This document shows, one piece after another, positions 1 to 17,771 of a DNA stretch of 18,388 bases. Position 1 is the first letter of the stretch, and each line of letters opens with the position of its first letter. The notes beneath the pieces were generated by a model. The model was not told the origin of the DNA and searched no databases. It was given only the letters and a program-made list of their open reading frames with translations. Made by a program: the position numbers and the translations under genes. The stretch is from the NCBI GenBank assembly GCA_015523565.1, contig WAKA01000054.1:1-18388 (forward strand), written 5' to 3'. This stretch comes from Candidatus Heimdallarchaeota archaeon. GTDB lineage: Archaea; Asgardarchaeota; Heimdallarchaeia; Heimdallarchaeales; Kariarchaeaceae.

Positions 1-44
1 AACTCATTCAATTCCCACTCTCTATTGATAAATTTGGTTTTCAT
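1..44 (-). CDS. 5' end of a probable archaeal AAA-type ATPase (ATPase_2-like), running off the window edge
   Basis: Not in the ORF track. ATG at 44 on the minus strand gives MKTKFINREWELNE, matching the F-x-(N/D)-R-E-x-E-L N-terminal motif typical of archaeal ATPases. An A-rich BRE-like stretch plus TATAATA lies about 25-35 nt upstream. Only 14 codons are visible. Confidence 0.5.
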   Translation of the reverse strand, partial: MKTKFINREWELNE

Positions 45-50
45 AATATA

Positions 51-107
51 GATTATTATAATTTGGATTATTATATTTCTTTTCCCTTTATTATAGTTAA
101 TAGTTAA
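51..107. promoter_or_regulatory. AT-rich direct repeats over the putative ATPase promoter
   Basis: GATTATTATA at 51-60 and 66-75 (15-bp period), TTATTATA again at 88-95, and TAGTTAA twice at 94-107. Confidence 0.35.
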
Positions 108-329
108 AATGTACAATAATAGGGTTTGAAAAATCATCTTCAAACACTCATTTATATTTCCACGTTATGTATAATGCTGACGAATAAAGAAAACACCAAC
201 TGACAACTCTTGCAGGAACCAACTTGTGTGTTTTTAATTCTTTCTTGATAACAAGGAGTATATTTTCCCTTCTTTCCATATAAATTGGCATTATCATACC
301 AACTTCTATGGGGATAAGAAGAGTAAGAT

Positions 330-803
330 CTATTTCCTTTTCTTGCTCAATTCCTTGATTTTATCTAGGATTCTACTGTTGGTAAGTTCCTTTACCAAGA
401 ATGATCTCGTAGGTTGCAATCCTCTTGATATTTTTGCTATAATTGCTTGCACAGGTTCGTCTCCTTCACTATGTGACAGACTTATTTTCTCAATCAGCTC
501 TTCAAATGCTGTTTGTTTCAATATCGTGTATGAAAACTCTATGTTTGAAAATGCGATGAGATAATCGGGGGTTCCTATTTTCGACATTGTTTCCTCCATT
601 GTCTTCAATATCCCCTCATCTGGGGATTTCAAGGTACCATATGCAACAGTTCCCAGATTCTCAATTTCAAATCTCATCAATTCCATTACTTCCTCATCTG
701 GATCTATCATTGCAATTCTGTATCCATTCAACGCTAACTCCATTATTATTGAATATGCTGTTCTTGTTGACGAATGTATCACCATTATCAACTCATTTGC
801 CAC
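330..803 (-). CDS. Degenerate, short SDR/Rossmann-fold-like protein
   Basis: LIMVIHSSTRTAYSIIMELALNGYRIAMID and TMSKIGTPDYLIAFS follow the SDR beta1-alphaA-beta2 and 'fGriDvLvnnAG' patterns. The TGxxxGxG glycines and NAG are lost, no YxxxK is seen, and it is only 157 aa. GTG start. Confidence 0.5.
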   Translation of the reverse strand: MANELIMVIHSSTRTAYSIIMELALNGYRIAMIDPDEEVMELMRFEIENLGTVAYGTLKSPDEGILKTMEETMSKIGTPDYLIAFSNIEFSYTILKQTAFEELIEKISLSHSEGDEPVQAIIAKISRGLQPTRSFLVKELTNSRILDKIKELSKKRK

Positions 804-810
804 AAAATTA

Positions 811-829
811 TCCTAGAAATATTCTAGGA
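811..829. promoter_or_regulatory. Palindromic operator-like site
   Basis: TCCTAGAA-ata-TTCTAGGA is a perfect 8-bp inverted repeat with a 3-bp spacer, starting 8 bp upstream of the GTG at 803. Confidence 0.4.
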
Positions 830-873
830 AAATGTTTCTTTTTTGTCTCGTCTCCAATGGTTGTTTAGGCAAT

Positions 874-891
874 CCGTTATTCCCCATAAGG
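874..891. repeat. 18-bp intergenic motif, copy 1 (CCGYTATTCCCCATWAGG)
   Basis: ccgttattccccataagg is 16/18 identical to 10356-10373. Confidence 0.45.
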
Positions 892-977
892 TTTCAGAAT
901 ATCCCTTCCTTGACTCATTGTGTGGGGAATTAATGCGCTAATATTTATACATTGAAAAAGGAATTAAATCAGGATCA

Positions 978-2339
978 ATGTCTGCTTACAAGAACAAGGA
1001 GGATGTATCCGCAATAATAAAAATCGCTGTAGTGAGTGGTCTAAGCGGGTTTATCAAAGTTGTCTATCCGTTTTTGATCCGATTTTTCTTTGGTTTGGAG
1101 ATATTGGGTGTTTACTCCGTCTACTTCCATACAATTCTTCTTATCGCCCTTCCCGTGGAACTCGGTTTGGCAATCTCTGCCCTGAAATTCGTCTCTGAAA
1201 GCTTGAACAGTCCGTCAGTATATATCTGGAACTCTATTGCAATTTTTATTTCATACTATATTTTGACTTTTATCTTCTATTTTTTCATACCCGTTTCTCC
1301 TTCAGTAAAACCAATCATATTCCTCGGAATTCTTCTCTTTGGGTTTCACCTATTGCTTAGGCACATCCTTTGGGGAATGAACCTATATGACTTGGCAATT
1401 AAATTGGAATTGATTTCATTTGCATTGGGGGTTTTGGGCTTTGCCATCATGAATTCATATTTAAAAATTTCACCCCTAATGCTGCTTTCTTTTCCGATCA
1501 TCTTCAATGTGGTCTATGTCTCTGCAGTCTCATATTGGCTTATCAGGCACGTGCCATTTTCCCCCATCAGCCGTCCTGTAATTTCAAGAATAGTTCACCA
1601 TGCAATATTTTTGGGAATTGCAAACATTCTTGGTTTTGGTTTGACTTATCTTCAATATGTCATTGCTTCATTATGGTTCACAGAAAAACAAGTTGGAACC
1701 CTCACATTTTGGACTGTAATGGTTCTGCCGCTATCGCTTATCTCCTATCCTTTCTCTGTAAGACTAATCAACAAACTTTCTTCAGTGCGCATTAAGGAAA
1801 AAATGATGGAGGGGTATCAACAGAGCCTCTCCACGATAAATGGGGTATTGCTTATTGTTACGGGCATTTCATTTGTATTTTATTTCTTCAACAATGGATA
1901 TGTCTCATCCTATGAAATCACAATACTTTTTGTTTCTATTCTTGTTGCCGTACTTGGATTTGCAAATACAATTGCATCAATTTACTTTTTGATAGAAGAT
2001 GTCAAATATAATACACTTTCCGCAATCCTTGGTGCTTTTCTTTCAATTTTTACTTGGATTGCATTCCATTCAACTTTGGGTATCCTCTCATTTCCTGTAG
2101 GATTGCTTGTAAACATGATCTTTGTCTCTGTTTTCTTTACACTTGCCTTCTACCATTTGGAAAGAAAAGTCCTTGTCTCCAATATTCTGCTGATCCTGAG
2201 TTCGCTTGTTCCTGCATATTCTATCATTTCCGGTAATCCTATTCTTGCAAATTTCAGTCCAATTGTGTTGGTTATTGGAGGAATTTCAATTCTCAGATGG
2301 TCTAATGATATCCAACAACGCGTGGAGGACGTCTCTTGA
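978..2339 (+). CDS. Wzx-like oligosaccharide flippase / polysaccharide biosynthesis membrane protein (MOP superfamily)
   Basis: 453 aa, about 12-14 hydrophobic segments. 'LIRFFFGLEILGVYSV', 'ELGLAISALKFVSE' and 'FTEKQVGTL' match the two-fold 'r.lg.e.yG.y' / 'lGl..a..k.is' / 'l....vG.y' pattern of flippases. TTTATA at 944-949. Confidence 0.7.
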   Translation: MSAYKNKEDVSAIIKIAVVSGLSGFIKVVYPFLIRFFFGLEILGVYSVYFHTILLIALPVELGLAISALKFVSESLNSPSVYIWNSIAIFISYYILTFIFYFFIPVSPSVKPIIFLGILLFGFHLLLRHILWGMNLYDLAIKLELISFALGVLGFAIMNSYLKISPLMLLSFPIIFNVVYVSAVSYWLIRHVPFSPISRPVISRIVHHAIFLGIANILGFGLTYLQYVIASLWFTEKQVGTLTFWTVMVLPLSLISYPFSVRLINKLSSVRIKEKMMEGYQQSLSTINGVLLIVTGISFVFYFFNNGYVSSYEITILFVSILVAVLGFANTIASIYFLIEDVKYNTLSAILGAFLSIFTWIAFHSTLGILSFPVGLLVNMIFVSVFFTLAFYHLERKVLVSNILLILSSLVPAYSIISGNPILANFSPIVLVIGGISILRWSNDIQQRVEDVS

Positions 2340-3172
2340 CCTCAAGGGAAATATTGAACAATTCCACAAATCCATATTATAATCTTGCTCTGGATCATGC
2401 AATTTTCCTATCATACAATGATTCCAATCCTTGGGTACGTTACTGGCAAAATAAACCAAGTGTAATTCTTGGAAAAGGTCAAGAACTTTCCAAAGAAGTG
2501 AACATAAAATATTGTCAAAGGGAGAAGATTGTAATTTGTAGGAGGATTAGCGGTGGTGGTGCGGTATACCATGATTTGGGAAATCTTAATGTCTCTATTT
2601 TCTTGAATACTAAATACTTGCCTTCAAATTCGATCAAAGAAATCCATGACCTTATTTTGGGTCGAATGCTTCTTGCTTTCAAAAACCTTGGATCTGGCTA
2701 TTCAAAAAAAGAGAATGCCATTTTCTACAATGGCAGGAAAATCAGCGGCACTGCGGCTTATAGGCAATCAAATAAGCTTCTCTATCATTTTACAATCCTT
2801 TTTGACGCAAACCTAATTCATCTGGAAAATGCACTTCTTGCAAAGGATCAAATGCCGAAATCAAAAAGAGCAAGCAGATATGCCCCCACTATAAATATCC
2901 CAAATTTTGACTTTCATCAATGGAGAAAAGTATTCTTGAAACAATTCAGTATAACAACATCAAAAGAAGATTTTGAAGTTGACCTTGCAAAAGCCCAATG
3001 GATACCCCATTCAAAATATGTGGATTTTCCAACCATTTCAGAAAGAAACCTTGCAAAAGATTTGGAAAAGGAAATCTATTCCGACAAGGAATGGATAAAC
3101 ACTGGACGATGGGCGAAATTCATAAACAAATTCAACCAAGTAATGCAGAAACAGGTCCAAATCCCATTCTAA
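2336..3172 (+). CDS. lplA: Lipoate-protein ligase A family protein (catalytic domain only)
   Basis: Motifs PYYNLALD, RYWQNKPSVILGKGQ, RRISGGGAVYHDLGNLN, GRKISGTA and LLYHFTIL. TTG start overlaps the upstream TGA (TTGA), with GGAGG upstream. No LplA C-terminal accessory domain. Confidence 0.9.
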   Translation: MTSREILNNSTNPYYNLALDHAIFLSYNDSNPWVRYWQNKPSVILGKGQELSKEVNIKYCQREKIVICRRISGGGAVYHDLGNLNVSIFLNTKYLPSNSIKEIHDLILGRMLLAFKNLGSGYSKKENAIFYNGRKISGTAAYRQSNKLLYHFTILFDANLIHLENALLAKDQMPKSKRASRYAPTINIPNFDFHQWRKVFLKQFSITTSKEDFEVDLAKAQWIPHSKYVDFPTISERNLAKDLEKEIYSDKEWINTGRWAKFINKFNQVMQKQVQIPF

Positions 3173-4031
3173 TTGCCGCGATCAATGCAACAATCCAGAA
3201 CAAGTCTTTCAATGTCTTTGACTGGATCTTCTTTGCCTTTGTGGAACCTATCCGAGCACCAATCACTGAACCTATTGCCAGAGGTATGCCAAAACTTACG
3301 ATATTCAATAGGTCACCATTGTATAAAGAAAATCTTGTTATTAATACAAAGGTTACAACAAAAAATATCATGAATGAAGATGTTGCCGCAGCAATATGGA
3401 ATGGCAACCCAGAAATGCCGCTAAGTGTCGGGACATATACTATTCCACCACCAACACCCAACATTCCCGCAATCATTCCCCCTATAAAAATCGCAACAAT
3501 GCCAATACCCAATTTCACTTCGTATTCAATAATATCCCCATCACTGTCCTTGAACTTTCTGACATCCCTTTTCAGTTTAGTCATGAAACCATCATTCTCA
3601 TCTACAGGCTTGATTTCAGTCTTTTCTTTTTCTATCTTTTCTGTTGGTTGTTTCCTATTTATCCTGTATAAATTGAAAATGGCAGTGAACCCAATAAGGA
3701 ATGCAAAAAGCATCTTTACAAATTCATCGTTTGTGATAACCCTTTGAGCTATATAACCTCCAAGTATCCCCCCAGGAATTGCAACCGCGGCAAAAATGAT
3801 TCCTGACCTGATGTCAAGTCTCTTCTTCTTATAATAATTAATGCTGGCGCTGAGTGACGTAAACCAGACGGATATTGATGAGATCAATGTGGCATCCGAT
3901 GAAGAGGAAACACCAATGACAAAAATGAGCAATGGCACATTCAATAACCCTCCTCCAATTCCAATCATAGGAGCTATTGTACCTATCAGTAAGCCAGAAA
4001 TTATTAAAATGACTATAGTTAATGGTTCCAC
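3132..4031 (-). CDS. TSUP family (TauE/SafE sulfite exporter-like) membrane protein
   Basis: Duplicated G(I/V)GGG motifs (IGIGGGLLNVP; LGVGGGIVYVP), AAATSSF, GSVIGARIG, about 8 TM segments. The 3' end overlaps the convergent lplA by 41 bp. Confidence 0.9.
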   Translation of the reverse strand: MEPLTIVILIISGLLIGTIAPMIGIGGGLLNVPLLIFVIGVSSSSDATLISSISVWFTSLSASINYYKKKRLDIRSGIIFAAVAIPGGILGGYIAQRVITNDEFVKMLFAFLIGFTAIFNLYRINRKQPTEKIEKEKTEIKPVDENDGFMTKLKRDVRKFKDSDGDIIEYEVKLGIGIVAIFIGGMIAGMLGVGGGIVYVPTLSGISGLPFHIAAATSSFMIFFVVTFVLITRFSLYNGDLLNIVSFGIPLAIGSVIGARIGSTKAKKIQSKTLKDLFWIVALIAAIRMGFGPVSALLG

Positions 4032-4165
4032 ATGCTCAACTTCCTATTTTCTTTTTATTTGTTGATGAAGTTCCCAAAAAATAAAGAAACAATTTGATAA
4101 TTTTTCATGGGTTAATTCAATGTCAACTCAATAAGGTTATATTGTTCATACAAATTTTGATGGAG

Positions 4166-4429
4166 ATGGAAACTGAAATTGATGCTTATGAGGAAGGAAA
4201 CAGGGTAATTGTTGAAGTTGAATTCAACGGAGTTACATATTCTGAGGAATTTCCCAAGGAAGGAAATATAGATGAAATCAGAAATGCCGTCGGAAACCTT
4301 CTGCAGGAAATTCATGAGGATTCAAACATCCCGCCATCACGTCGAGGCAAGATAGAAAACCAAATTTTCAAGTATCTTCATTCAAAAAAATACATTACTG
4401 ACGACGACATCCTTGCATTGATTTCTTAA
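4166..4429 (+). CDS. Small acidic hypothetical protein
   Basis: Track ORF is 4094..4429. TTATAT at 4137-4142 favours the ATG at 4166 (or 4160). Natural composition. Shares the TTAA stop site (4426-4429) with the convergent gene. Confidence 0.6.
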   Translation: METEIDAYEEGNRVIVEVEFNGVTYSEEFPKEGNIDEIRNAVGNLLQEIHEDSNIPPSRRGKIENQIFKYLHSKKYITDDDILALIS

Positions 4430-5328
4430 CGTCTAAGATACCGTAAAATTATGGGGAGAGCAATCAAGACCAGAAATATGCCTGTGATTGAGTAAAATAT
4501 TAGGTTTTGAGAAAGACTGTTCCCCAATTCAAAGACCAATGTTTGGGTTCTCTTGATCAGCATATCCAAATCCAGAAAAGATGGGGATATCGTTTGATTA
4601 TCTAAAGTTGAATTGAATTGGAATCGTATGCTGTCCAATCCCCCATCAGTTAGGTTATAATTTATCGAAATGCCCAATGTTGTATTCGTTAAAGATGTGG
4701 TGTTTATGCCAACAGTTGTCAATGTACTGGCATTTAACAAATTTGCAAGATTTATGGATGTCAATCCAGCTTTTGCATTCAACAAAAATTCATTTCCTGT
4801 TGTCTCTGAAGAGATTGTGAGGTCATTTACCGTAAAATTCAATGTTGTTTGAACAATGCCTCCTATTAAACCACCCATTAAATCTGTAATTGATTCCAAA
4901 TAAGAAAAATAATCGCTGTAGTCTGGAGTTGAAAATGGAAGCAGGTATGGTGTTGAACCATTTGGAAGCAAAAAGCTTTGACCTGCAACCGTTCCCTTTC
5001 TGATCTCATATGAAAAACTCTGGTTCAAATTGACAGTCAATTTCTGCAAATCATTGGCAGTTGTTGTATCATTGACCCTAGTTTGCTGTATCTGAAAATA
5101 TTCAACTTTTGATTCATTAATGCTCTTGAAAACAATAATTGTTGTACGATTTGCGTCTGTCATCAAAGGGGCAATATCAATTCCACCTTGTATCACTGAA
5201 CTTTCCAATCTGTCCAACCAATAAACAAATGCATCACCTGCTTTTCTTCCCCATTCATAATCCTGTGCATTGACCATCGGCATGATGAACAATGACAGAA
5301 CCAGCATTCCTGCCGCAATTTTTTTCAT
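4426..5328 (-). CDS. Secreted, C-terminally membrane-anchored cell-surface glycoprotein
   Basis: Signal peptide MKKIAAGMLVLSLFIMPMVNA, a 'WG..AGD...Y' start of the mature chain, a Thr/Asn-rich body with 12 N-x-S/T sequons counted, and a C-terminal TM helix with basic tail (LRYLRR). Confidence 0.75.
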   Translation of the reverse strand: MKKIAAGMLVLSLFIMPMVNAQDYEWGRKAGDAFVYWLDRLESSVIQGGIDIAPLMTDANRTTIIVFKSINESKVEYFQIQQTRVNDTTTANDLQKLTVNLNQSFSYEIRKGTVAGQSFLLPNGSTPYLLPFSTPDYSDYFSYLESITDLMGGLIGGIVQTTLNFTVNDLTISSETTGNEFLLNAKAGLTSINLANLLNASTLTTVGINTTSLTNTTLGISINYNLTDGGLDSIRFQFNSTLDNQTISPSFLDLDMLIKRTQTLVFELGNSLSQNLIFYSITGIFLVLIALPIILRYLRR

Positions 5329-5360
5329 ATTATGATATGCCGTTCTTTCAATTATTTAAC

Positions 5361-6524
5361 CTATTGATTTAGGGGCTTTTTTTTGTAATTGGAGATTATC
5401 ACTTCTGATTGGACAATGGGAATGCATTTCCTTAAAATCTCATCAGGGTCTATGCCATTCATTGCTTGGATTGAGCCATCAAAGTTTTGTATCTGGTTTT
5501 CAAAATGCTTGTAGAATTCCCTGATAAAATAACGCATTGATCTCCTGAGAATCTGTGCGGATCTGTCCGCTTGAATGATAACCTGAACCTCATTCAACTT
5601 TTCCAGAAGGACAACCCCTTCGTCATACAGATAGCTTTTCATGATAATGTTTTCATTGCCAACCAGTTCACCAATCAATGAATTTACTGATGCAAAAATG
5701 GGGGCAACAAGAAATTCTCTTGAGCCCTTTGTTTCTGTGATCTCTACAGCATACAGAAGTTCACCATTATCTGAGATCAATTGCAGAAATTTAATTCTCG
5801 TAGGTGCCAAATATACAAAATTTGGATATCGAATATAAAATACCGCAAGAATTATAAATGTGGGAAGAATCGTTGTAAACCCATTGACATCCCCTATTGG
5901 AAGGAAATGCTCTGCAATCTCTATCAAATTCCCGATATTGAACATGACCAACGCAAGATTAAGAACTATAAGATATCGCTTGATTATTGGGGCTGATGAA
6001 ACCTTGTATTGCTTATAGTATACATACTGCAATAATATTGATATTTCCATCCCCATTAAATCAAACAACACTCCATCAAGGGTGGTTGGTTGAGCAAAAT
6101 GAAAAACTTCATTTGTATAGATGAGCTTGCCCGTTGAAACGTACAAAAGAGCCAAAATAACTTGTCCACCAATCAATCCTGATAAAATCCCCAAACGTAT
6201 GGAATTGGGTCTTTCATTCAGGAAAAATTCTGCCATAAAGTACAGGATCAGTAATGCAATCAAATGCACAAATCGAACAGGATTGACAATCAGGGAATGC
6301 ACATCACTGCTATACTTGAACAACCCCCATTCTCCCTCAAAAAATAGCTTGAACAACTGTAAAATCCCCATGAGCGTTGTGGAGCTAAATATTGCAATGA
6401 ACCAATCCAATGCATTAACACCACTTTTCCTTCGAGAAATGAAAAAATAGGATGCAAGAAATCCACTTAAAATTACTAGGATAATTGGAGGAATAAGGTC
6501 TCCTGACGGAACTTGATTTACCAC
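5361..6524 (-). CDS. 7-transmembrane protein with C-terminal longin/roadblock-like domain
   Basis: Seven hydrophobic helices in about aa 1-235. The soluble tail IKFLQLISDNGELLY...LVAPIFASVNSLIGEL...VVLLEK..VQVIIQAD...MRYFIREFYKHF..QIQNFDG fits the longin-like beta-beta-alpha-beta-beta-beta-alpha pattern common in Asgard archaea. GTG start; TTTAAA about 25-30 nt upstream. Confidence 0.65.
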   Translation of the reverse strand: MVNQVPSGDLIPPIILVILSGFLASYFFISRRKSGVNALDWFIAIFSSTTLMGILQLFKLFFEGEWGLFKYSSDVHSLIVNPVRFVHLIALLILYFMAEFFLNERPNSIRLGILSGLIGGQVILALLYVSTGKLIYTNEVFHFAQPTTLDGVLFDLMGMEISILLQYVYYKQYKVSSAPIIKRYLIVLNLALVMFNIGNLIEIAEHFLPIGDVNGFTTILPTFIILAVFYIRYPNFVYLAPTRIKFLQLISDNGELLYAVEITETKGSREFLVAPIFASVNSLIGELVGNENIIMKSYLYDEGVVLLEKLNEVQVIIQADRSAQILRRSMRYFIREFYKHFENQIQNFDGSIQAMNGIDPDEILRKCIPIVQSEVIISNYKKKPLNQ

Positions 6525-6583
6525 AAATGAAAATATGTTTTTTTATAATTTAAATCATTTGAACACTTATGGCTATATTTTCA

Positions 6584-7171
6584 CTAAAAAAAATCTTCAA
6601 GGTTTCTATGAAGTTCCCTAATTCTCGCAATTTCACCCTCTAATATTTTGATATAATAGGCATCAAAGTCCCGTCCCACCGTCAACAATTGTATTTCAAT
6701 TCTCGCATTCTCAAGCGTATAATACTTTCCTGTTCCAGGGAGATATCCAACTATCAGATTATCATCCTCCCACAAAATGCCTGTAGCGGCATCCTTAAAC
6801 AGTTTAATGTAATTGTCCAAGTCTGGGCGCTTGATGGGTCTGTAATGTTCTGTCACAACAAAAGGGCGATCCCGCTTTCGTATCGATTTAGGGACACTCC
6901 GATAAAATTTCATGCCTAAAAGAGCCGCCTTGGAAATAGGACGTTCTGGCTTTTTCTCAATGTTCATCAATAACCTTCGAATAACATCCTCATCATCTTT
7001 TGACGGGTTCACTCCATGAATTTTTCCTCCCCTATGGTACACCCTGACCCTTTTTTTCGGAACTGGCTCTATAGGCAATGAAAATTCCAGAAAAAAAGAA
7101 GGTTCATCAAAATTGTCCCTTAGCTGACGCTTATTTGAATAGGTCAATTTCTTCTCTGTCTCATCAGTCAT
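6584..7171 (-). CDS. rusA: RusA family crossover junction endodeoxyribonuclease
   Basis: FSLPIEPVPKKRVR N-terminus and an intact catalytic motif KRPDLDNYIKLFKDAATGILWEDDNLIV (DxDN..K...D....W.DD). Confidence 0.88.
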   Translation of the reverse strand: MTDETEKKLTYSNKRQLRDNFDEPSFFLEFSLPIEPVPKKRVRVYHRGGKIHGVNPSKDDEDVIRRLLMNIEKKPERPISKAALLGMKFYRSVPKSIRKRDRPFVVTEHYRPIKRPDLDNYIKLFKDAATGILWEDDNLIVGYLPGTGKYYTLENARIEIQLLTVGRDFDAYYIKILEGEIARIRELHRNLEDFF

Positions 7172-7177
7172 TGGTCT

Positions 7178-7747
7178 TCACGGATGGAAAAAATCATCAA
7201 TGGCAATACCCAATCCACTGAGAATAAAGGGATCAAATGTCTCGTATGCCTTGATCACAAATGAATCCTTGAAATCAAATGTCCGTTTGTCTATTGTAAA
7301 AACAATATGTCCGCCCATTCCTTTGAAATCAAAAGATTTCCCTGCATCTATGGTTTTTGCGGATAACGATTTGTTACCAATCTGCAATACAACATCTGTC
7401 CCAATCTGTTCACTCTTTATAAACTCAATTTGTGCAACTTTGTCCTCCTTAGATCCAATTAATGTGTATGAACGAAGTATTGGATAGTTCTTCAAGAGTT
7501 TTCCAACGTAAACATTGTTTCCCGTTCGAAATTGAAACTCCCCTTTTGTAGTCACTAATTTTGATTCTACATAAAACATGACTGTCTTGTTCCTTCTGTC
7601 CGTAATAACATACCGATTTTGTTCCTGTTTCAACAATAATTCTTGTTCTGCATCACTTTTGAATAAGGATGGCATCGATTCCCTTTCTCCAAATTTTTCA
7701 TAAACTTTCCCAAACAATGACCCGTATTTGAGAAATAATTTCCCCAT
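7178..7747 (-). CDS. LURP-one-related / scramblase (Tubby-C-like fold) protein
   Basis: Repeated beta-hairpin units (YVITDRRNKTVMFYVE; YTLIGSKEDKVAQIE; FDFKGMGGHIVFTIDKR; DSFVI) followed by a buried C-terminal helix DPFILSGLGIAID. 6-bp gap to rusA. Confidence 0.65.
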   Translation of the reverse strand: MGKLFLKYGSLFGKVYEKFGERESMPSLFKSDAEQELLLKQEQNRYVITDRRNKTVMFYVESKLVTTKGEFQFRTGNNVYVGKLLKNYPILRSYTLIGSKEDKVAQIEFIKSEQIGTDVVLQIGNKSLSAKTIDAGKSFDFKGMGGHIVFTIDKRTFDFKDSFVIKAYETFDPFILSGLGIAIDDFFHP

Positions 7748-7827
7748 TCATTTATTTTTCATTTATTTTTCTTTCCAAGAATATGTAAGATAAAGAGTTA
7801 TATTCAATCAATATGATTTAAACTTGA

Positions 7828-8919
7828 ATGTCTGACGACGTGGCAAATCAATTATGGACAGAGGTGGCTACAAAATCCTTTGTAATGGAAATAATAGAGG
7901 AAATTGCCCATATTTTCATTGGAAAGGATACTGAAGGAGGCAAAACTCGCTATATATCTGTCCAAGACGTTGTATTTGAGGGAAAACAAATTAATGATGT
8001 GCTCCATATTGAGGCATCGGCAAAACTTCTTTCCGATCAAGGAAGCTGGAATCAACCAATGATCTTGCGTATCCACAAGAATTTGTCCAGGTTCAATTCA
8101 GAAAGAAGACTTTATGACGTGCTTGTTGACAGAACCTCTAAATTCGAGGATATCCACCCCACAAAATTGATTTACCTAAATCCACAACAACTCTTGATGG
8201 TTTATGAATCCATCGCAAGCGATTTACTGCTTAACCTTGACCCATTACTTATTGACTTCTCACTAGGCAGGATTGCAAGCGTCATGCATGGAAAGGATGT
8301 CAACAATTACAGGGTCGAGAACCTAATCAATAATATTATCTATATTTTGGAATACCTTCCCTTCCCAGAAGATATTTCAAAATCACTTAAAGAATTGCTT
8401 ACTCAAAAAGCTGAAAAAGTCCCTTTCACTCAAAGCGCATTTCTCCCTTGTACTGCTTTCACTCCTTCACTGCTTAAAATCAAATATAGAACCTCCAACC
8501 CAAGTTCAATAGACCTATTCACTGTTGCAAAAGGAAAGGGATTTGACACTTATATCCCAATGGGGGTTGTCGACGAGGACTTTCATGACAGATTCGAGGA
8601 CATTGCAAACTTCTACGCCATTGACGCTTTCGAGGAATACATAAGAACAGGAAAAATAGAAGAAACAAAAGAAAGGATTGAACGTTTCCTAACCGGATAT
8701 AACATGATTTCTCAAAACTCCTTCCATCTTGAATTGGAAAAGTTCTACCCTGTCGGATACATTCTTGACTTACAACTTATCCTTTCCATTTGGCTTCAAG
8801 AAGTATCCTCAATAAACATTTCCAACCCTGATTATGAACGGATCAATCAACTTGGCATGTTCTCGATCCATTTATTGTCTGAAGGTGTCTTGGATGAATT
8901 CCAGATCGAAACATTTTAA
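7828..8919 (+). CDS. APH/choline-kinase-like fold protein, probably catalytically degenerate
   Basis: PMILRIH...FNSERRLY...HPTKLIY...LLMVYESI...LGRIASVMHG and DRFEDIANF follow the APH-family layout. HGDxxxxN and DFE/DWE motifs are not found. TTATAT at 7798-7803. Confidence 0.5.
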   Translation: MSDDVANQLWTEVATKSFVMEIIEEIAHIFIGKDTEGGKTRYISVQDVVFEGKQINDVLHIEASAKLLSDQGSWNQPMILRIHKNLSRFNSERRLYDVLVDRTSKFEDIHPTKLIYLNPQQLLMVYESIASDLLLNLDPLLIDFSLGRIASVMHGKDVNNYRVENLINNIIYILEYLPFPEDISKSLKELLTQKAEKVPFTQSAFLPCTAFTPSLLKIKYRTSNPSSIDLFTVAKGKGFDTYIPMGVVDEDFHDRFEDIANFYAIDAFEEYIRTGKIEETKERIERFLTGYNMISQNSFHLELEKFYPVGYILDLQLILSIWLQEVSSINISNPDYERINQLGMFSIHLLSEGVLDEFQIETF

Positions 8920-8943
8920 CTTTTGAACTGTAAAATGCAATCC

Positions 8944-9372
8944 CTATCGTGTACTCCAATATGTCCCCCCATTCTTTTTCCATTTTAAATAATCTTCCAA
9001 TATCTTTCCATGATCAAATGCAAATTCTGATGTATCATCAAGATCAACCCATTCAAAATCACTTGCATCATCCCCCGCTTGTGGATTTTCTTCCGTATCT
9101 GCAATAAAAACAATGGAAACTATATGTTTACGGGGGTCTCTTTCAGGATCCGAATACACACCCAATATTTCCCTTAACCCAATATCGACATTCAATTCCT
9201 CTTTTGCCTCTCGAATTGCCGCATGTTCCACTGTCTCCCCATAATCAACAAATCCCCCTGGCAACGCCAAATAATTATGAAAGGTTTTTCCTTTCCTTCG
9301 TATCATTAGGATTTTCCCTTCACGTTCGATGATTATGTCCACCGTTAGTGATGGAACCTTATACTCTGTCAT
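8944..9372 (-). CDS. NUDIX hydrolase, ADP-ribose pyrophosphatase-like
   Basis: Full Nudix box GGFVDYGETVEHAAIREAKEELNV plus VYSDPERDPRKH, AGDDA and AFDH. ATG at 9372 is preferred over the track start 9384 because TTTATA lies 26-31 nt upstream. Confidence 0.92.
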   Translation of the reverse strand: MTEYKVPSLTVDIIIEREGKILMIRRKGKTFHNYLALPGGFVDYGETVEHAAIREAKEELNVDIGLREILGVYSDPERDPRKHIVSIVFIADTEENPQAGDDASDFEWVDLDDTSEFAFDHGKILEDYLKWKKNGGTYWSTR

Positions 9373-9496
9373 AGTATTCCACACATCTCCAAATTCCTAT
9401 AAAAATTTTACATAAACCATTGTGCCAATCAGCTTTGCTAATAAAAACCGTTGATACACCCTTTTTTTCTTTTTCAAAATCATTTGCATATCAAAA

Positions 9497-10321
9497 TCAT
9501 AAAAATTCCATCAATCCATTGATGAAAAGAGATATTGCTACCACAAACAAAACAAAAACAATCAAACGTGAAAGCTGTGCTGAATTCATACGAGGTTTCA
9601 TTGAATTGCCAATGATCGATCCAATTCCCAATCCAGTAATAAGAACTCCCGTCAATACTGGGTCAAAATTACCCGCCAGAAGGTGTGTAATTCCACCTGC
9701 CAATGCTGTGAAAAGTATCATGAATATCGCTGTTCCCGTAGCAATAACTGGTGGAACAGAAAAGGCAATGACAAGAAGAGGCGTCTTTAACCATCCCCCA
9801 CCAACACCCAACATACCAGAAAGCAAACCGATGATAAAACCACCACCAATAAGGGATGTCAATGAAATCCGATATGTAGCCCCTTTTTTATGCAAAATCA
9901 TGAATGGGGGTATTTCTCCAATCTTTTGCCAAAATTTACTTTTGTAGTGATCATCACTGTTTCCCTTATTCTTTTTTCTCATCTCGTTTGCTAAGACTAT
10001 TGCAATCACTGAAAAGAGAATTTTCAGGAATCCCTCATTTAAGCTGACTGTAAGTCTAGCTCCTGTTACTGCACCAATTGCCGTGGGTACCTCAAACATT
10101 ATCGCCAACTTAAAATCTATTTCACCACGTCGAAATGCACCAATAGATCCGACCAGCGCAGGAACAGTAATGCTAATCAATACAGATCCAACAATGAGTG
10201 GAAAAGGAAACCCCCCCATCAAGGCCAAAATTGGAACCATCAGAACTCCTCCCCCTAATCCCGCCGTTACGCTCAAAGAAGCAACAACTATTGCCAATAA
10301 AAAAACGAGCAAATATTCCAT
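9497..10321 (-). CDS. TSUP family (TauE/SafE sulfite exporter-like) membrane protein, second paralog
   Basis: GLGGGVLMVP and SGMLGVGGGWLKTP motifs, ATGTAIF, about 8 TM segments. Confidence 0.9.
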   Translation of the reverse strand: MEYLLVFLLAIVVASLSVTAGLGGGVLMVPILALMGGFPFPLIVGSVLISITVPALVGSIGAFRRGEIDFKLAIMFEVPTAIGAVTGARLTVSLNEGFLKILFSVIAIVLANEMRKKNKGNSDDHYKSKFWQKIGEIPPFMILHKKGATYRISLTSLIGGGFIIGLLSGMLGVGGGWLKTPLLVIAFSVPPVIATGTAIFMILFTALAGGITHLLAGNFDPVLTGVLITGLGIGSIIGNSMKPRMNSAQLSRLIVFVLFVVAISLFINGLMEFL

Positions 10322-10355
10322 TAATTACCAGTCATTTCCATTCATAAAAAGAATA

Positions 10356-10373
10356 CCGCTATTCCCCATTAGG
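10356..10373. repeat. 18-bp intergenic motif, copy 2
   Basis: ccgctattccccattagg is 16/18 identical to 874-891. Confidence 0.45.
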
Positions 10374-10518
10374 GTAATCCCTTTTTACATTTCAATTTTT
10401 CTTTGAGTTATTTTGTATTTAGATGTTTTATTGCAAATAATCACAGATACCTATTGAAACACTCAATTGAGATACTGAAAATAAAAAATATTATATTTTT
10501 GTGAATTTGATATTATCT

Positions 10519-11454
10519 ATGGCTTACGATGCTTCATTCAAGGATATGTTTGGATCATTGTTACGAGAAAAAAACTTCAAATGCAGAACGTCTGTTGAAG
10601 TGGGAAAGCTTCCTTTGCAAATTGACATAGTATTGGAAAGGAATCAAAATTCTGACTTCTCAATTATCAGACCATTGGAAACTGTAATGAAAAACATGAA
10701 CGCAAATCGATTGATAGTTGAGTTCAAAAGTATGAGAGATCAACTAAAATTAGAACATATTAGGAAGCTAATTGCATATAAACAATTATTCCTGATTTTA
10801 GAGGATCTTAATGACAATGCTGGTACTGCTATGCTGATTTTTTGCGTTTCTACCCCTAGAACCATTTTACAAAATATGGATGTGAAAGAAGAAAGAATGG
10901 GTCTCTACAAGCTAAAATTTGAACGAAATCTGATATACATTGTTGTTGCAAACGAAGTCCCAATAATGAAATCCACTTTGGGAATTGCCACTTTTGCAAG
11001 CTCTTTCACGCAATTGAGAAAACTTGTCCCATACATATCGAGACATCCCCATGCACAAAGATTTTTATCTTTCTCCATAGTAATGAATTATAAGAGAACC
11101 CTGAAAGTCATGAGGGAAGCAGGCATGAGCACATCATCAATCATCATGAGAAACATCAAGCTGGCAATAAATGATTTGGGGCTGGAAAATGTGATTAAGG
11201 AAATCGGGCTGGAGAATGTGATCGAGCAGGTCGGGCTGGAAAACGTGATTGAGCAGGTCGGGCTGGAGAACGTGATCAGGCAGGTCGGGCTGGAAAACGT
11301 GATTGAGCAGGTCGGGCTGGAGAACGTGATCAGGCAGGTCGGAAAAGAAAAAACATTCAAGATTTTGTTGGCTGACAGAGAGGAACTACAACAAATTATC
11401 CAGAAACTTTCTGATGAAGAACGAGACCTCCTTAGATATCTATTGGAAAAATAA
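10519..11454 (+). CDS. PD-(D/E)xK nuclease-fold protein, Rpn/YhgA-like architecture, with C-terminal 9-aa tandem repeats
   Basis: N-terminal YDASFKDMF (cf. 'hD..FK.l' in Rpn-like proteins), EVGKLPLQIDIV and LIVEFKS catalytic-type motifs, and six GLENVI(K/E/R)(E/Q)(I/V) repeats. ATG 10519 is preferred over GTG 10501 because TTATAT lies at 10491-10496. Confidence 0.65.
   Translation: MAYDASFKDMFGSLLREKNFKCRTSVEVGKLPLQIDIVLERNQNSDFSIIRPLETVMKNMNANRLIVEFKSMRDQLKLEHIRKLIAYKQLFLILEDLNDNAGTAMLIFCVSTPRTILQNMDVKEERMGLYKLKFERNLIYIVVANEVPIMKSTLGIATFASSFTQLRKLVPYISRHPHAQRFLSFSIVMNYKRTLKVMREAGMSTSSIIMRNIKLAINDLGLENVIKEIGLENVIEQVGLENVIEQVGLENVIRQVGLENVIEQVGLENVIRQVGKEKTFKILLADREELQQIIQKLSDEERDLLRYLLEK
11179..11340 (+). 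repeat. Intragenic tandem repeat, 6 x 27 bp with higher-order 54-bp period
   Basis: Unit gggctgga(a/g)aa(t/c)gtgat(t/c)...gtc. Units 3+4 (11233-11286) are identical to units 5+6 (11287-11340). G+C is 15/27 and 17/27 in units 3 and 4, far above background. Confidence 0.97.
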
Positions 11455-11924
11455 AAATGATTTGATTTTTGAAAACATTCCATCTGCCAAACCGCACATT
11501 AGGCTTATAGCGTTTTCTACATCGTTTATCTGTTGAATAAGAAATTCAAAAATCCATAACTTTCAAACAAAATGTAACTATTGCTATGAATTTGACAAGA
11601 TTGTTTGTCACTGATTTGTTGAACATGCGAGCAAATGCGACAAGGGGCGACAATACCAACTATACAATTTCATTTCAACGAATGATGTTTCATTTGCATG
11701 GGCATTGCAAACAGTGCCTGTTTCACATATTGTATCAACTAGTGTTTACATTTAGTCCGAGATAAACGCAAAAAAACACATGCAGCAAGTCCTTTCTCAG
11801 TTCGTGGATCTTGTAAATTCTGCAAGAATAACTGAAAAACACCAAGATATATGACCAATGCATCTCATGGAACGAATGCATTACTTGCTTCTCATTGAAT
11901 TGTTACCAAATATCATTAGATAAA

Positions 11925-12761
11925 TTATGCTACAGTTACTCCATAGGCCAAACCAATGAGATAGCTTACTCCACCGCCGATCATGCCAATGAACAGGTGT
12001 TCCAAGCCTTCTTTGATTGGATTGGTTTTTGTCATCAGTGTTTTCAATGCTCCAGTTGCAAACAAAGTCAAGGATGTCAATCCTGTTGCCCAATAGAGTC
12101 CAACGATTGCGTCCGTGACAAAGAAAAATGGAAGAACCGAAGGAAGGGACCCTGCAATGAAAAGGAATGCAACAGTTGCCATTGCCTTCCAAGGACTGCG
12201 TCGGGATATGTCTGCAACTCCAAGTTCCATTGTCATCATTACCTTCATCAATTTATCGTCATCCTCTGCAATCTTTTCCACTAATTCCTGCAATTGTTTG
12301 CCCCGTAATCCTAATTCCCCAAACATGTCAAATAGTTCGTTGATCTCGTGATTGCGGAAATACTTGAAATGAAGCTTCTCTTCCTCTATAATTGCGTCAA
12401 AAACCTGCTCTTGGCTTTTTGTGGAAATGAATTCTCCTGCCATCATTGAAATGGCCCCTGCTATTGCCCCCACAATCCCTGCAAGCAGGACATTTTTCAC
12501 GGGGCTGTTTGCTCCCGCGACACCTGCAACAAGCAAATAGATGGAAACGAGTCCATCATTCACTCCGAGGATTATGTCACGCATATAGTTTCGAATTTTG
12601 TCATCATGTTCCTTGAATTCGATTTCTTTCCCTTCCAAATCCTCTGGATATCTATAGATATCATATTTTGGGTCATAGATCCTTCCGTCTTCATTGACAA
12701 CATGCTCTATAGTGCTTTCCTCTTGAGTCACCTTGCTTTCTTGGGTTTCCATAGGTGTCAT
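11925..12761 (-). CDS. VIT1/CCC1 family Fe2+/Mn2+ transporter
   Basis: YMRDIILGVNDGLV, AGAISMMAGEFISTKSQ, an acidic cytoplasmic metal-binding loop (EEEK, HEINEL, MELG), SPWKA and GSLPSVLPFFF. The start could be 12752. Confidence 0.92.
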   Translation of the reverse strand: MTPMETQESKVTQEESTIEHVVNEDGRIYDPKYDIYRYPEDLEGKEIEFKEHDDKIRNYMRDIILGVNDGLVSIYLLVAGVAGANSPVKNVLLAGIVGAIAGAISMMAGEFISTKSQEQVFDAIIEEEKLHFKYFRNHEINELFDMFGELGLRGKQLQELVEKIAEDDDKLMKVMMTMELGVADISRRSPWKAMATVAFLFIAGSLPSVLPFFFVTDAIVGLYWATGLTSLTLFATGALKTLMTKTNPIKEGLEHLFIGMIGGGVSYLIGLAYGVTVA

Positions 12762-12839
12762 TTGTTTCTTATTATAAAAGACCTATTGGAACAGTCTATA
12801 TCTAAAAGTTATTTTCCCAAATAAAACATGATAATTATT

Positions 12840-13952
12840 GTGAATTTGCTTATTGATATTGGAGGTACTTATGTAAGGCTCGCAAAAGAATCAGAAGGCA
12901 AATTATATGACTTCAAAAAGGTGGAATACAAACATGGGTCAGCATTCCACTCGATTGTACTTGATTATATGGATGGGGAGGCAATAGACACCGTCTGCCT
13001 CTCTGTTGCAGGTCCCGTCAACTCAAATGTGGTAAAGCTTACAAATTCCGATACCACCATTGATCTTGATAAGCTGAAAGAAAATCTAGGTGCAAGAAAT
13101 GCCGTTGCAATGAATGACCTAGTCGCATTTGGATGGTATGCAAGCACATTAAGCAATTCAAAAACCATTGCCTGTATTGGAATGGGTACGGGATTTGGTC
13201 TCGCTTTTGTCTCCAACGCAGAAGTTCCAATAGTATACCCTAGTGAGTATGGTCATAGACTCGCCATTTATGACAGGAACTTTGCTTTGTTCAAATTCCT
13301 CGACATCATTGAAGAAAATCCAAGCGTAGAATTCTTTCTTTCTGGATCAGGCATTGCCAAACAATTCACATACAAAATATATTCCATTGCCAATCGAATA
13401 CAGAATTCAATGTCACAGGAAATGGTAATTGACAGCATTTTAAGAAACCTACTGGTCAATTCAACAGCATATACTGAATTGGTGATGAACCTTGCAGAAA
13501 TTATGGGATCTGAATGGCTGAAAGATACAGGAAAACGAGGTCTCGAACATAACGAAAAGATATTGGCAATGCAGGAGATACTCAACCACTTTATCTTCCT
13601 ATTGCAAAAAGATGGTGGGCTTGGAGCTCCCCTCATGCAGGTCACAAGCTCAGATGAATTGGCAGAAATATCCATGAAACTGGTGGATAACCTTGTAAAG
13701 AACTTGAAGGAAGAACTGGCAAATATCATGCTGTCATACTTGCCTGAAAAGATATATGTAACAGGAGGATTTGCCGCCAGATTTGATTGGGAAAAAATAA
13801 GACATTCCTATAATGAAAACCCCCCGTTAAGACATGATAAAATTGTCGGGCAATATGCCCCCATCAATATTGTCCACGTCAATGACAATTATGCATCAAT
13901 AAAAGGATTGCAACAATACCTCCGTTTTTTGGCAGATAATGCCAACCTATAA
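12840..13952 (+). CDS. glk: Glucokinase (Glk-type ASKHA sugar kinase) with a long internal insertion
   Basis: LLIDIGGTYVRLA, VAGPV, LTN, MNDLVA, GMGTGFG, PSEYGH, EFFLSGSG and IYVTGGF motifs. GTG 12840 is the likely start (track start 12828). Sugar specificity is not determinable. Confidence 0.75.
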   Translation: MNLLIDIGGTYVRLAKESEGKLYDFKKVEYKHGSAFHSIVLDYMDGEAIDTVCLSVAGPVNSNVVKLTNSDTTIDLDKLKENLGARNAVAMNDLVAFGWYASTLSNSKTIACIGMGTGFGLAFVSNAEVPIVYPSEYGHRLAIYDRNFALFKFLDIIEENPSVEFFLSGSGIAKQFTYKIYSIANRIQNSMSQEMVIDSILRNLLVNSTAYTELVMNLAEIMGSEWLKDTGKRGLEHNEKILAMQEILNHFIFLLQKDGGLGAPLMQVTSSDELAEISMKLVDNLVKNLKEELANIMLSYLPEKIYVTGGFAARFDWEKIRHSYNENPPLRHDKIVGQYAPINIVHVNDNYASIKGLQQYLRFLADNANL

Positions 13953-13989
13953 CAGAGAATGTTTTGAATGAGCTTGATTTTTCCCAATT

Positions 13990-14985
13990 ATGGAATTGGG
14001 ATTGACAGTCAGCGCAGATTACCTACCCGTGCATGAAATCCTGAAATTGGCACCATTGGCGGAAACCCTTGGATTTTCCCAGTTTGCAGTCCCTGAGATT
14101 TGGGGACATGATGCAGTTACCCTTCTGGCGAATCTTGCCACAAGAACCAAGAAAGCAATCCTTTCATCAGGCATCATGAATATGTACAGCAGAACGCCAG
14201 GAACCATGGCAATGACTGCCGCAAGTCTAGATGAATTGTCGCAAGGAAGATTTACATTAGGCTTGGGATTGAGTGGTCCAGCAGTGATTGAGAATTTCCA
14301 TGGCAAAAAATTCTCCAAACCGCTTGCCCATACAAGAGACTTTGTGTCAATGACAAAGCTCCTGCTTTCGGGAAAAAGAATGAACTACAATAGTGAAACC
14401 CTTGGCAATGTGAAAGGATTTAAACTATCCCTCAAACTAACTAGACCCAAAATCCCCATACATATTGCCGCATTGGGTCCAAAAAACGTCAAGCTTACTG
14501 CTGAAATCGCTGACGGATGGATACCTGTAATCATGCCATTGGACGCCTTCAAGCAGGAAGTGAAAAAGATACACCGACATTTGGAAGATTTCGGTAGGAA
14601 CATCAATGAATTCGAAATAACCCCATTTGTCCTTTCTTTGACAGGAACAGACGATCAAGTCGAATCACTTCTCAGAAAACACCTCGCATATTATTTCGGT
14701 GGAATGGGCACTTTTTACAACAATATGCTCAAACGGGTCGGCTTTGAAAATGAAGCAAGGGAAATCAAGCTAAGGTGGACAAATGGGGACAGAGAAGGTG
14801 CCGCAAAGGCAATTTCGGACGATTTGCTTCAACAGACCTGTGTATTCGGAAACAAACAGGAAGCTAAAACTAAATTGAAAAAAATTGTCGAGGCTGGTGC
14901 AACTAGACCATTGATCTCACTTCCGTTTGGAACACCCAAGGAATTGGCAATGCAGACCATTCAAACACTTGCACCCGCTACATGA
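13990..14985 (+). CDS. LLM-class flavin/F420-dependent oxidoreductase
   Basis: PEIWGHDA, GIMNMYSRTPGTMAMTAASLDELSQGRFTLGLGLSGP, IHIAALGPKNVKLTAEIADGW and YYFGGMG. F420 dependence is an inference from the subfamily pattern. Confidence 0.9.
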   Translation: MELGLTVSADYLPVHEILKLAPLAETLGFSQFAVPEIWGHDAVTLLANLATRTKKAILSSGIMNMYSRTPGTMAMTAASLDELSQGRFTLGLGLSGPAVIENFHGKKFSKPLAHTRDFVSMTKLLLSGKRMNYNSETLGNVKGFKLSLKLTRPKIPIHIAALGPKNVKLTAEIADGWIPVIMPLDAFKQEVKKIHRHLEDFGRNINEFEITPFVLSLTGTDDQVESLLRKHLAYYFGGMGTFYNNMLKRVGFENEAREIKLRWTNGDREGAAKAISDDLLQQTCVFGNKQEAKTKLKKIVEAGATRPLISLPFGTPKELAMQTIQTLAPAT

Positions 14986-15403
14986 GATTATACATCAAAA
15001 CTCCAAAATAATACATCGAATATAATGTTCCCAAAAAAAAGACAAATACAAAAATGGATATCAACCTCCTTGCATTTGTCCCAAAATTGCCATAATTATT
15101 CAGGAAATCCAAAAACGGTTTCACTTTCAAAACTCCCACGAATATTAAAATTGAGATAACCATAATCATCAGATATGCAATCATATCCATTGGCTCCACT
15201 TGCCCATTTGTGTTGAAGAATGGAAAAAATATCATTAATGGCCAAACCGTTATCAATGAAAAAACAATATAGCCAACCATCAACTGGAAAACAAGTCCCA
15301 TCTCCAGTTCAACCCGAAACGAAAACCAAATGCTAACCAATAATGAAACAATCACATAAAAAAGACCTGCATACAAAATTTCCATGAACCACATTAAAAC
15401 CAA
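14978..15403 (-). CDS. Hypothetical membrane protein (about 4 TM)
   Basis: Four hydrophobic segments. The true start may be ATG 15394. 8-bp convergent overlap with the LLM gene. Confidence 0.65.
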   Translation of the reverse strand: MVLMWFMEILYAGLFYVIVSLLVSIWFSFRVELEMGLVFQLMVGYIVFSLITVWPLMIFFPFFNTNGQVEPMDMIAYLMIMVISILIFVGVLKVKPFLDFLNNYGNFGTNARRLISIFVFVFFLGTLYSMYYFGVLMYNLM

Positions 15404-15606
15404 TAAAAAATTAACTTTTGTATACCAAACCTTTGTTTCCTCTCTAATCAGGGTTCTTGTCAGTCCTGAATTCCATCACTATTTCTGTTCCAAAGGAATT
15501 TTCAATCAATACAAAACCAAATACAAGCTACACGATCTTGCATTCACTTGTCTGCTTGACATTTAAATTCTATTTAACAATGATACACCACTTTAACCAG
15601 TTGACT

Positions 15607-15631
15607 AAAAGATATCCCCTCTGTATCTTTT
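15607..15631. terminator. Inverted repeat downstream of the coiled-coil gene (terminator- or operator-like)
   Basis: AAAAGATA-tcccctctg-TATCTTTT is a perfect 8-bp arm pair about 40 bp past the stop at 15669. Confidence 0.25.
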
Positions 15632-15668
15632 CTCAAAAATTTCAATCACTGCAAGCCTGAAGCAATTT

Positions 15669-16064
15669 TTATAGTTTGTCAATGATCTTGGAAACTAGAT
15701 TTCTAAAATCAGACTGTTGTTTTTCAATGGCATCAGTTTGACTCATTATGATTTTTTCAAGTTTTTGAGTCACATCAGCAATATCTTCCATCTTTTCCTC
15801 GATTTTTTCGATTCTTCCAACCTTTTCCTCGATTTTTTCAATCCTTTCCTCAATGGCACCTATATCATCGGTGAGGCTTTTTATTTCTGCTTTTAAGTTT
15901 TCCATCAACAAAATCCTTTCTTCCTCGCTCTGTAAGATGTCCTCAAATTCCGTCTTACTTATACTGATCAAATCCTCGTCTGGATCCAAATAACTTCGGA
16001 CACTTTCTGCTACTTCTGAAGCAATCACTTCATCCGCCTTTTCCTCAAGTTCACTTCTTGACAC
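15669..16064 (-). CDS. Acidic coiled-coil hypothetical protein
   Basis: Heptad-rich LKAEIKSLTDDIGAIEERIEKIEEKVGRIEKIEEKMEDI. GTG at 16064 (MSRSELEEK) is preferred over 16139 because a TTATTAATATA box lies about 30-40 nt upstream. Confidence 0.7.
   Translation of the reverse strand: MSRSELEEKADEVIASEVAESVRSYLDPDEDLISISKTEFEDILQSEEERILLMENLKAEIKSLTDDIGAIEERIEKIEEKVGRIEKIEEKMEDIADVTQKLEKIIMSQTDAIEKQQSDFRNLVSKIIDKL
15792..15839. repeat. Intragenic direct repeat, 30-bp period
   Basis: cttttcctcgattttttc at 15792-15809 and 15822-15839, encoding EKIEEK twice. Confidence 0.8.
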
Positions 16065-16677: not shown

Positions 16678-16713
16678 TTCAATTAAGTCTACTATTCAAT
16701 AGGAATTCATGAT

Positions 16714-17715: not shown

Positions 17716-17771
17716 TTCCCACGAATACGGGGATTTCTTCGCGATGTTCCACCACAGCGCAAGTCTTCTTT

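Follow-up and report, generated by a model that had tools for sequence, protein, structure and literature searches.

The longin fold is the fold by which eukaryotes dock small GTPase switches. In TRAPP Bet5/TRAPPC1 and Trs23/TRAPPC4 (Pfam Sybindin), Mon1-Ccz1 and Fuzzy-Inturned, longins are soluble subunits of Rab exchange factors. Prokaryotes have seven-helix receptors that carry diverse modules on the inside of the cell (7TMR-DISM and relatives), reportedly described by Anantharaman and Aravind in 2003; the known outputs of such receptors are kinases, cyclases, phosphatases and the like, and to our knowledge do not include a longin. Asgard archaea possess many small GTPases and longin/roadblock proteins. 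Here we analyzed an 18,388-nucleotide stretch of DNA (hereafter, the window) from a Candidatus Heimdallarchaeota archaeon of the Kariarchaeaceae (contig WAKA01000054.1 of assembly GCA_015523565.1, positions 1 to 18,388 of the forward strand). One of its open reading frames (ORFs), at 5361..6524 on the minus strand, translates into a 387-amino acid (aa) seven-helix membrane protein with a longin tail. Our analysis confirmed it as a receptor-shaped seven-helix membrane protein that ends intracellularly in a longin domain.

The membrane domain comprises residues 1-236 (5817..6524, minus strand, as are all parts of the gene given below), with the N terminus outside. A first-pass annotation, made from the letters of the window alone, had named seven hydrophobic helices; hydropathy analysis showed seven segments at the same positions. 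In the predicted structure, helix 1 spans residues 7-34 (6423..6506); helix 2, residues 39-62 (6339..6410), with an invariant A38-L39-D40 at its cytoplasmic start; helix 3, residues 82-102 (6219..6281), with E99 at its cytoplasmic end; helix 4, residues 108-131 (6132..6203), with R110 at its cytoplasmic start; helix 5, residues 149-175 (6000..6080), with D155 near its outer end; helix 6, residues 179-204 (5913..5990), with E202 and E205 at its outer end; and helix 7, residues 215-232 (5829..5882), which is lysine-free. The loops assigned to the cytoplasm carry 12 lysines and arginines vs. 2 in the outside loops; across 17 aligned relatives the corresponding ranges are 7-13 and 0-4. This charge bias indicates an N-out, C-in topology, in agreement with the cytoplasmic C terminus proposed by the first-pass annotation; seven helices, N-out and C-in, is the GPCR (G-protein-coupled receptor)-type arrangement. 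AlphaFold2 modeling of the full protein from a 17-sequence alignment (mean predicted local distance difference test [pLDDT] 81.5, predicted template modeling score [pTM] 0.79) yielded seven long helices followed by a beta-beta-alpha-beta-beta-beta-alpha-alpha domain.

Several known kinds of protein were ruled out. The gene product is not a microbial rhodopsin, as residues 215-232 contain no lysine to bind retinal. Nor is it a kinase or cyclase: a Pfam and NCBIfam scan of the 387-aa protein returned zero matches, so a kinase, cyclase or other known domain is absent, and the protein stops at residue 387. Both absences had already been noted at the first reading. PHROGs likewise gave no match for the gene. 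The seven-helix hydrolases of the PAQR/alkaline ceramidase type have a conserved histidine-rich zinc site in the bundle; membership was ruled out, since no histidine occupies an invariant or near-invariant column (position 206 is histidine in 10/17 close relatives and 25/46 family members).

Helix 7 leads into the tail through a junction (residues 230-243; 5796..5837) bearing the motif Y-I-R-Y-P-N-F-V-Y-L-A-P. The cytoplasmic longin-fold domain covers residues 243-378 (5391..5798) and contains a C-terminal motif, P-D-x-x-L-R-K-C-I-P-I-V (residues 360-371; 5412..5447). AlphaFold2 modeling of the tail alone, from 60 sequences, gave a pLDDT of 89.8 and a pTM of 0.84, with the same order of elements as in the full model. 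In both models, DSSP assigned strands to residues 244-251, 256-262, 297-300, 303-310 and 313-319 and helices to residues 273-288, 324-346 and 360-373, matching the longin order beta1-beta2-alpha1-beta3-beta4-beta5-alpha2-alpha3. When the tail was submitted to Foldseek, 10 matches with E <= 1e-3 were obtained, all of them longin proteins (AP-1 and AP-2 sigma, Trs23/TRAPPC4, MON1A-CCZ1 and CPLANE). The tail was thus structurally similar to solved longin domains across the whole domain, the closest structural matches being TRAPP Bet5 and Trs23, Sec22, VAMP7, and AP mu and sigma. An ESM Atlas search with the tail alone gave weak leads (0.81-0.83). The first-pass annotation had called the tail longin- or roadblock-like. 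Its longin half held, in the predicted models and in Foldseek; its roadblock half did not, since the tail has neither the N-terminal helix before beta1 nor a Pfam match above cut-off expected of Roadblock/LC7 (PF03259), and ends in a C-terminal helix pair foreign to that family. Roadblocks stood below longins in the structural ranking (MglB 8.5, Asgard roadblocks 8.4-7.8, with only ~100 residues aligned).

A profilin-like three-layer fold is common to PAS, GAF, longin and roadblock domains. We also considered a tail of this fold class that serves as a PAS/GAF-like cytoplasmic small-molecule sensor or transmitter and docks no GTPase. The tail does lie directly after helix 7, which is the position of PAS in Asgard HisKA_7TM kinases. 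However, no PAS or GAF domain was present in the best 50 VIA-align rows or among the Foldseek matches listed, and no PAS or GAF Pfam match, even a sub-threshold one, was found in the protein, its relatives or the tail alignment; moreover, there is no downstream output domain for a transmitter to control. We regard such a tail as highly unlikely.

The protein belongs to an unannotated family spread throughout the Asgard phylum, with many copies to a genome. A word-indexed search yielded 16 relatives of full length (382-405 aa, 36-72% identity); those with names came from Heimdallarchaeota and Kariarchaeaceae and were all annotated as "hypothetical." Among 1.84 billion cluster representatives, an exhaustive phmmer search found 62 proteins with E <= 1e-3, 34 with E <= 1e-10 and 14 with E <= 1e-30, mostly of 340-400 aa and matching end to end; five of ten distant relatives that were looked up had named sources, all Asgard, and were labeled "hypothetical" or "membrane protein of unknown function." A 46-member profile had matches (E <= 1e-5) in 295 of the 301 genomes that were sampled from the phylum, including 90/90 high-quality genomes and 69/70 genera, usually at least six times per genome; among the matches listed, most span positions ~1-375 of the 381 in the profile, and some of the weaker ones may be partial. 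The nearest ESM Atlas clusters (score 0.97) were 100% archaeal, with Promethearchaeota the commonest, and one of them had been named automatically after the histidine-kinase 7TM region. A metagenome scan with a narrow alignment gave only 6 loci, mostly short. None of the 6 longer wide-profile matches listed contains a fusion to a GTPase, which is weak evidence. In this genome, no relatives consisting of the seven helices alone came up when the membrane part was searched with an iterated profile.

Conservation was counted in a 46-sequence alignment with ~20% overall identity. The most conserved window is the junction (residues 230-241; P234 in 45/46 and P241 in 42/46), followed by the start of longin helix 2 (residues 325-334), the C-I-P motif (P369 of the C-terminal motif in 42/46) and the beginning of longin helix 1; all sequences share G254. 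Charged residues are kept within the bundle (E99 in 41/46, E202 in 40/46, E205 in 38/46 and D155 in 37/46), as are the arginines R31 (35/46) and R110 (34/46). Conservation is lowest in the external loops. The kept charged residues, together with the conserved junction, argue for a working bundle that is rigidly coupled to the tail. A bundle that does the work could in principle be a channel, a transporter or a PAQR/alkaline-ceramidase-type hydrolase, the tail serving only for dimerization or autoregulation. Charges retained in the bundle are compatible with this, and the histidine columns and empty domain scans described above speak against its hydrolase form; we consider it quite unlikely.

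Kinship of the bundle with a known sensor module was suggested by profile comparisons. HisKA_7TM (PF16927) matched 3/60 relatives below the cut-off, with nearly the whole model aligned. L078, a family member with a clear longin tail (E 3.7e-23), scored 18-21 bits with HisKA_7TM vs. a cut-off of 28.6. Conversely, the membrane-part profile matched a true HisKA_7TM protein, L072, at positions 9-211 (domain E 2.6e-4). When the membrane part (46 sequences) was compared by hhalign with nine Asgard HisKA_7TM domains, a probability of 83.3% was obtained (E 8.6e-6), with helices 1-6 aligned collinearly through 184 columns; controls gave 1.9% (reversed) and 0.1% (TauE and VIT1). 7TMR-DISM_7TM matched only 1/60 relatives, at a sub-threshold E of 0.085. 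HisKA_7TM itself is present in 12/121 sampled Asgard genomes, and three of the longer Asgard HisKA_7TM proteins scanned are classic kinases (seven helices, PAS, HisKA and HATPase_c). In this genome HisKA_7TM had no match at E <= 1, and the 387-aa protein does not match PF16927. Distant kinship of the bundle with the prokaryotic HisKA_7TM sensor module is likely but unproven. Two true HisKA_7TM proteins (49-59 bits), at L072 123-1424 and L081 1450-2754, carry an ENT-domain-like tail (E ~1e-7) and no kinase, and L074 combines HisKA_7TM with an unassigned 140-aa tail; as judged from these profile matches, the three appear to be further swapped outputs on the HisKA_7TM sensor module.

We tentatively interpret the gene product as a one-piece membrane signal transducer whose longin domain acts by protein contact, likely on a small GTPase, an interpretation to which we give close to, though less than, an even chance. 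The bundle would sense something at or in the membrane, the outer acidic cluster of D155, E202 and E205 being a candidate sensing site, and the change would pass via the rigid, proline-bearing junction to the longin domain. Having no catalytic output, this domain would have to act through protein-protein contact. The likeliest contact would be pairing with a longin or roadblock domain combined with docking or regulation of an Arf-, Rab- or Rag-type small GTPase, which is what all well-studied longin platforms would suggest by analogy. The sensor of the first-pass annotation, acting on small GTPases in a GPCR-like manner, is plausible, though none of the tests run here supported it.

Several results weigh against this interpretation. 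No Pfam longin model scored above its cut-off in the protein, its relatives or its paralogues (Sybindin, Longin, Intu_longin_1, Fuz_longin_1 and Clat_adaptor_s were weighed). Sub-threshold longin matches occurred in 6/50 distant relatives (Intu_longin_1, Sybindin and Fuz_longin_1), in 5/60 members of the tail alignment and in 5/19 proteins of this genome (Fuz_longin_1, Sybindin, Longin, Clat_adaptor_s, Robl_LC7 and MAPKK1_Int), and these converge on one clan; the best PDB sequence match of the family profile was Trs23 (E 0.25). Since the fold matches and no Pfam model exceeds its cut-off, the case for longin membership is one of predicted fold, with no curated sequence model behind it. As for the bundle, its similarity to HisKA_7TM amounts to 9% identity and ends before helix 7, and hhalign with 11 paralogous membrane parts of this genome as the query gave only 4.5%. 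Longin-type GTPase-activating proteins of the NPRL2, FLCN and SMCR8 type have a conserved catalytic arginine; no arginine is conserved across the 46 sequences of the wide family. Arginines R321, R328 and R331 are invariant in 17 close relatives, while in the wide family position 321 is R in 25/46 and K in 12/46, and position 328 is R in 20/46.

Conservation is the same in the outer as in the inner helix halves (0.43 vs. 0.45), and so the helices do not show the variable pocket and constant inner face typical of a receptor. Equal conservation would suit a constitutive anchor or scaffold, in which the bundle only tethers the longin domain to the membrane or labels a region of it, and partners are always recruited, with no sensing, much as lipidated LAMTOR1 holds Ragulator roadblock dimers or a tail anchor holds a longin SNARE. 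That the closest matches of the tail (Bet5, Trs23, Sec22, VAMP7, AP mu/sigma) are structural or platform longins fits an anchor as well. So does the solitary position of the gene: synteny, another point against a transducer, is confined to close relatives, the upstream pair of a RusA-like and a 189-aa gene recurring in 5/38 loci and the downstream surface-protein gene in 3/38, both counts including the window locus. Clustering of neighbor families over the 38 loci (excluding L013, L014, L017 and L018, which are short or partial, and L001-L006 of this genome) revealed lineage-limited synteny and no signaling partner, and the neighbors examined included no gene for a GTPase, a roadblock protein or another longin. 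Yet an anchor would need neither seven helices with charged residues (E99, D155, E202, E205) kept at ~20% identity nor a rigid, near-invariant junction, and its bundle would not be expected to resemble a known sensor module. An anchor seems to us rather unlikely.

Linkage to small GTPases was the remaining point on which the transducer interpretation could be weighed. This genome (3.57 Mb, 233 contigs, ~90% complete) has ~31 small-GTPase loci according to the Arf, Ras and RagA profiles, and the tail profile matches 37 of its ORFs. Thirteen of these have at least five hydrophobic segments ahead of the longin domain, eleven being 319-436 aa long with 6-8 segments. The 13 multi-helix ORFs share no contig with a GTPase locus, and 0/14 multi-helix longin genes lie less than 5 kb from any of the 31 loci; the expected number is ~1.2, and this count is hence uninformative rather than negative. 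Among the 23 other longin-profile ORFs, which lack a multi-helix part, 4 lie within 3 kb of a GTPase (expected 1.36, P ~0.05). Across the phylum, 40 family loci on large contigs were compared with 40 equal-sized control stretches of the same contigs. A GTPase was found within ~6 kb in 12/40 family loci and 6/40 controls (Fisher p 0.18), a comparison that is underpowered and includes many close kin. GTPase proximity across the phylum is a trend and no demonstrated link.

Individual loci with adjoining GTPase genes were also observed. In three other Asgard genomes, of two genera, a gene for a 183-194-aa small GTPase (L128 5405-5956, L139 7078-7629 and L107 5378-5962) lies 21-36 bp from a paralogue of the family, the two being convergent. 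In this genome, polytopic membrane proteins with 6-9 hydrophobic segments are encoded 66-117 bp from small-GTPase genes at C46:14069-15454, C120:11654-12913, C232:32588-33661 and C122:28229-30064; they were undetected by the membrane-part profiles, and the one on C120 adjoins the genome's best RagA-like match (a 529-aa frame).

The longin profile also matched proteins of other architectures in this genome. It was found at the end of a 10-helix, 565-aa membrane protein (C137:1642-3339, L049) and at the C terminus of TPR-repeat proteins on C180, C159 and C193 (L055, L056 and L058). The product of C208:255-1661 (L061) combines a signal peptide, FG-GAP propeller repeats (Pfam E 3.5e-19), one membrane helix and a longin match (E 3.4e-7), and is by its predicted architecture a single-pass receptor-like longin fusion. 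Its presence on 10-helix, FG-GAP and TPR proteins fits a longin domain that may be a portable cytoplasmic adaptor or output module. A 1671-aa FG-GAP protein, P0084, gave a weak match to the family profile.

The gene starts with GTG at 6524, where the closest orthologues have ATG at the same aligned position, and stops with TAG at 5361-5363. An A/T-rich, TATA-like box was read from the sequence at 6537..6553 (minus strand). As this is 13-29 nt 5' of the start codon, the gene may have its own promoter, possibly an archaeal one with a very short leader. Upstream lie a RusA-like Holliday-junction resolvase gene (6584-7171, minus strand; Pfam RusA E 1.5e-18, PHROG 140 E 1.2e-27) and, beyond it, the 189-aa gene (7178-7747, minus strand), which has no family match. 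Given that RusA genes are typically carried by phages and prophages, the pair may be a mobile-element remnant in an Asgard genome. Downstream, 33 nt past the stop codon, starts the surface-protein gene (4426-5328, minus strand). Its 300-aa product has a signal-peptide-like N terminus, many N-x-S/T sequons and a C-terminal hydrophobic anchor with basic residues, and matched no family. Among the 38 loci, a malate/lactate dehydrogenase gene is present in 11, of which 10 come from one genus, and a NUDIX gene recurs in 5. The latter stands directly 3' of the orthologue on the same strand at L009 (7256-7759), L010 (3458-4036), L021 and L024; the NUDIX gene of the window (8944-9384) sits 2.4 kb upstream of the longin-fusion gene. 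The window also contains two TauE/SafE-family exporter paralogues less than 6 kb apart (3132-4031 and 9497-10321, both minus strand; Pfam E 9e-46 and 2e-40) and, at 15669-16139 (minus strand), a gene for a 156-aa predicted coiled-coil protein with weak Rad50, arcadin-4 and SMC-like matches far under the cut-offs.

The first-pass annotation took the fusion to be uncharacterized, and our searches agree with this: full-text literature searches found no account of a seven-helix/longin fusion, though supplementary tables of preprints may already list the family. A preprint by Liu et al. (2020) reports 130 Roadblock/longin asCOGs with many unusual fusions, among them longin with two-component domains; the word "transmembrane" is absent from its accessible text. 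The accessible part of PMC10933270 deals with soluble Asgard GTPase, roadblock and longin proteins. There, "transmembrane," "membrane-spanning" and "7TM" do not occur, "fused" and "fusion" refer to vesicle fusion, GTPase-longin/roadblock fusions and GFP fusions, and the Asgard proteins tested in human cells showed no membrane targeting. A 2026 preprint, in the portion available, counts "7TM proteins" as one of the previously reported eukaryote-signature families and presents four GPCR-labeled Asgard-eukaryote structural clusters. The main text of Eme et al. (2023), as far as accessible, does not mention a seven-helix/longin fusion.

The family is multicopy and near-universal among the Asgard genomes searched, and joins a sensor-type bundle to a longin domain, which makes it a concrete, assayable candidate for the missing link between Asgard membranes or outside signals and the GTPase machinery. 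In a more specific form, seven-helix longin proteins would be ligand-gated platforms for Asgard Arf-, Rab- or Rag-like GTPases, with the state of the bundle deciding whether the longin domain binds a small GTPase or releases it (or, alternatively, switches it on or off). We think this form unlikely. If true, it would represent a pre-eukaryotic, single-polypeptide counterpart of receptor-to-G-protein signaling and of lysosomal membrane-sensor/Ragulator/Rag signaling, built on a prokaryotic HisKA_7TM-type sensor and a eukaryote-type output. Should the tail bind a GTPase, the origin of receptor-to-GTPase signaling would become directly testable; should it bind none, the family would still be a new output type for prokaryotic seven-helix receptors.

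In comparison with known systems, the protein is a eukaryote-type module apparently set into a prokaryote-type receptor chassis. Unlike in the TRAPP-type longins, the domain is here covalently joined to a seven-helix bundle, and no partner subunits are encoded nearby. In the longin SNAREs (Sec22, VAMP7 and Ykt6), with which we grouped the SRX domain of the signal recognition particle receptor alpha subunit for comparison, the longin domain stands at the N terminus, ahead of a SNARE motif and one tail anchor, whereas the present domain comes after seven helices, at the C terminus, in a protein that has no SNARE motif. MglB, Roadblock/LC7 and LAMTOR domains, solved Asgard roadblocks included, carry a helix at the N terminus, and the pair of C-terminal helices of this tail is absent from them. 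Among eukaryotic GPCR-fold proteins, TAS2R14, Ste2 and the adhesion and class C GPCRs were compared; the bundle looks at least as much like the HisKA_7TM sensor module as like a eukaryotic GPCR. HisKA_7TM kinases have an N-terminal seven-helix module of equal length and a cytoplasmic domain directly after helix 7, but that domain serves a kinase output, whereas here it is a longin without HisKA or HATPase_c. In design the protein is like the 7TMR-DISM-type receptors, where seven sensor helices are joined to a single output module in the cytoplasm.
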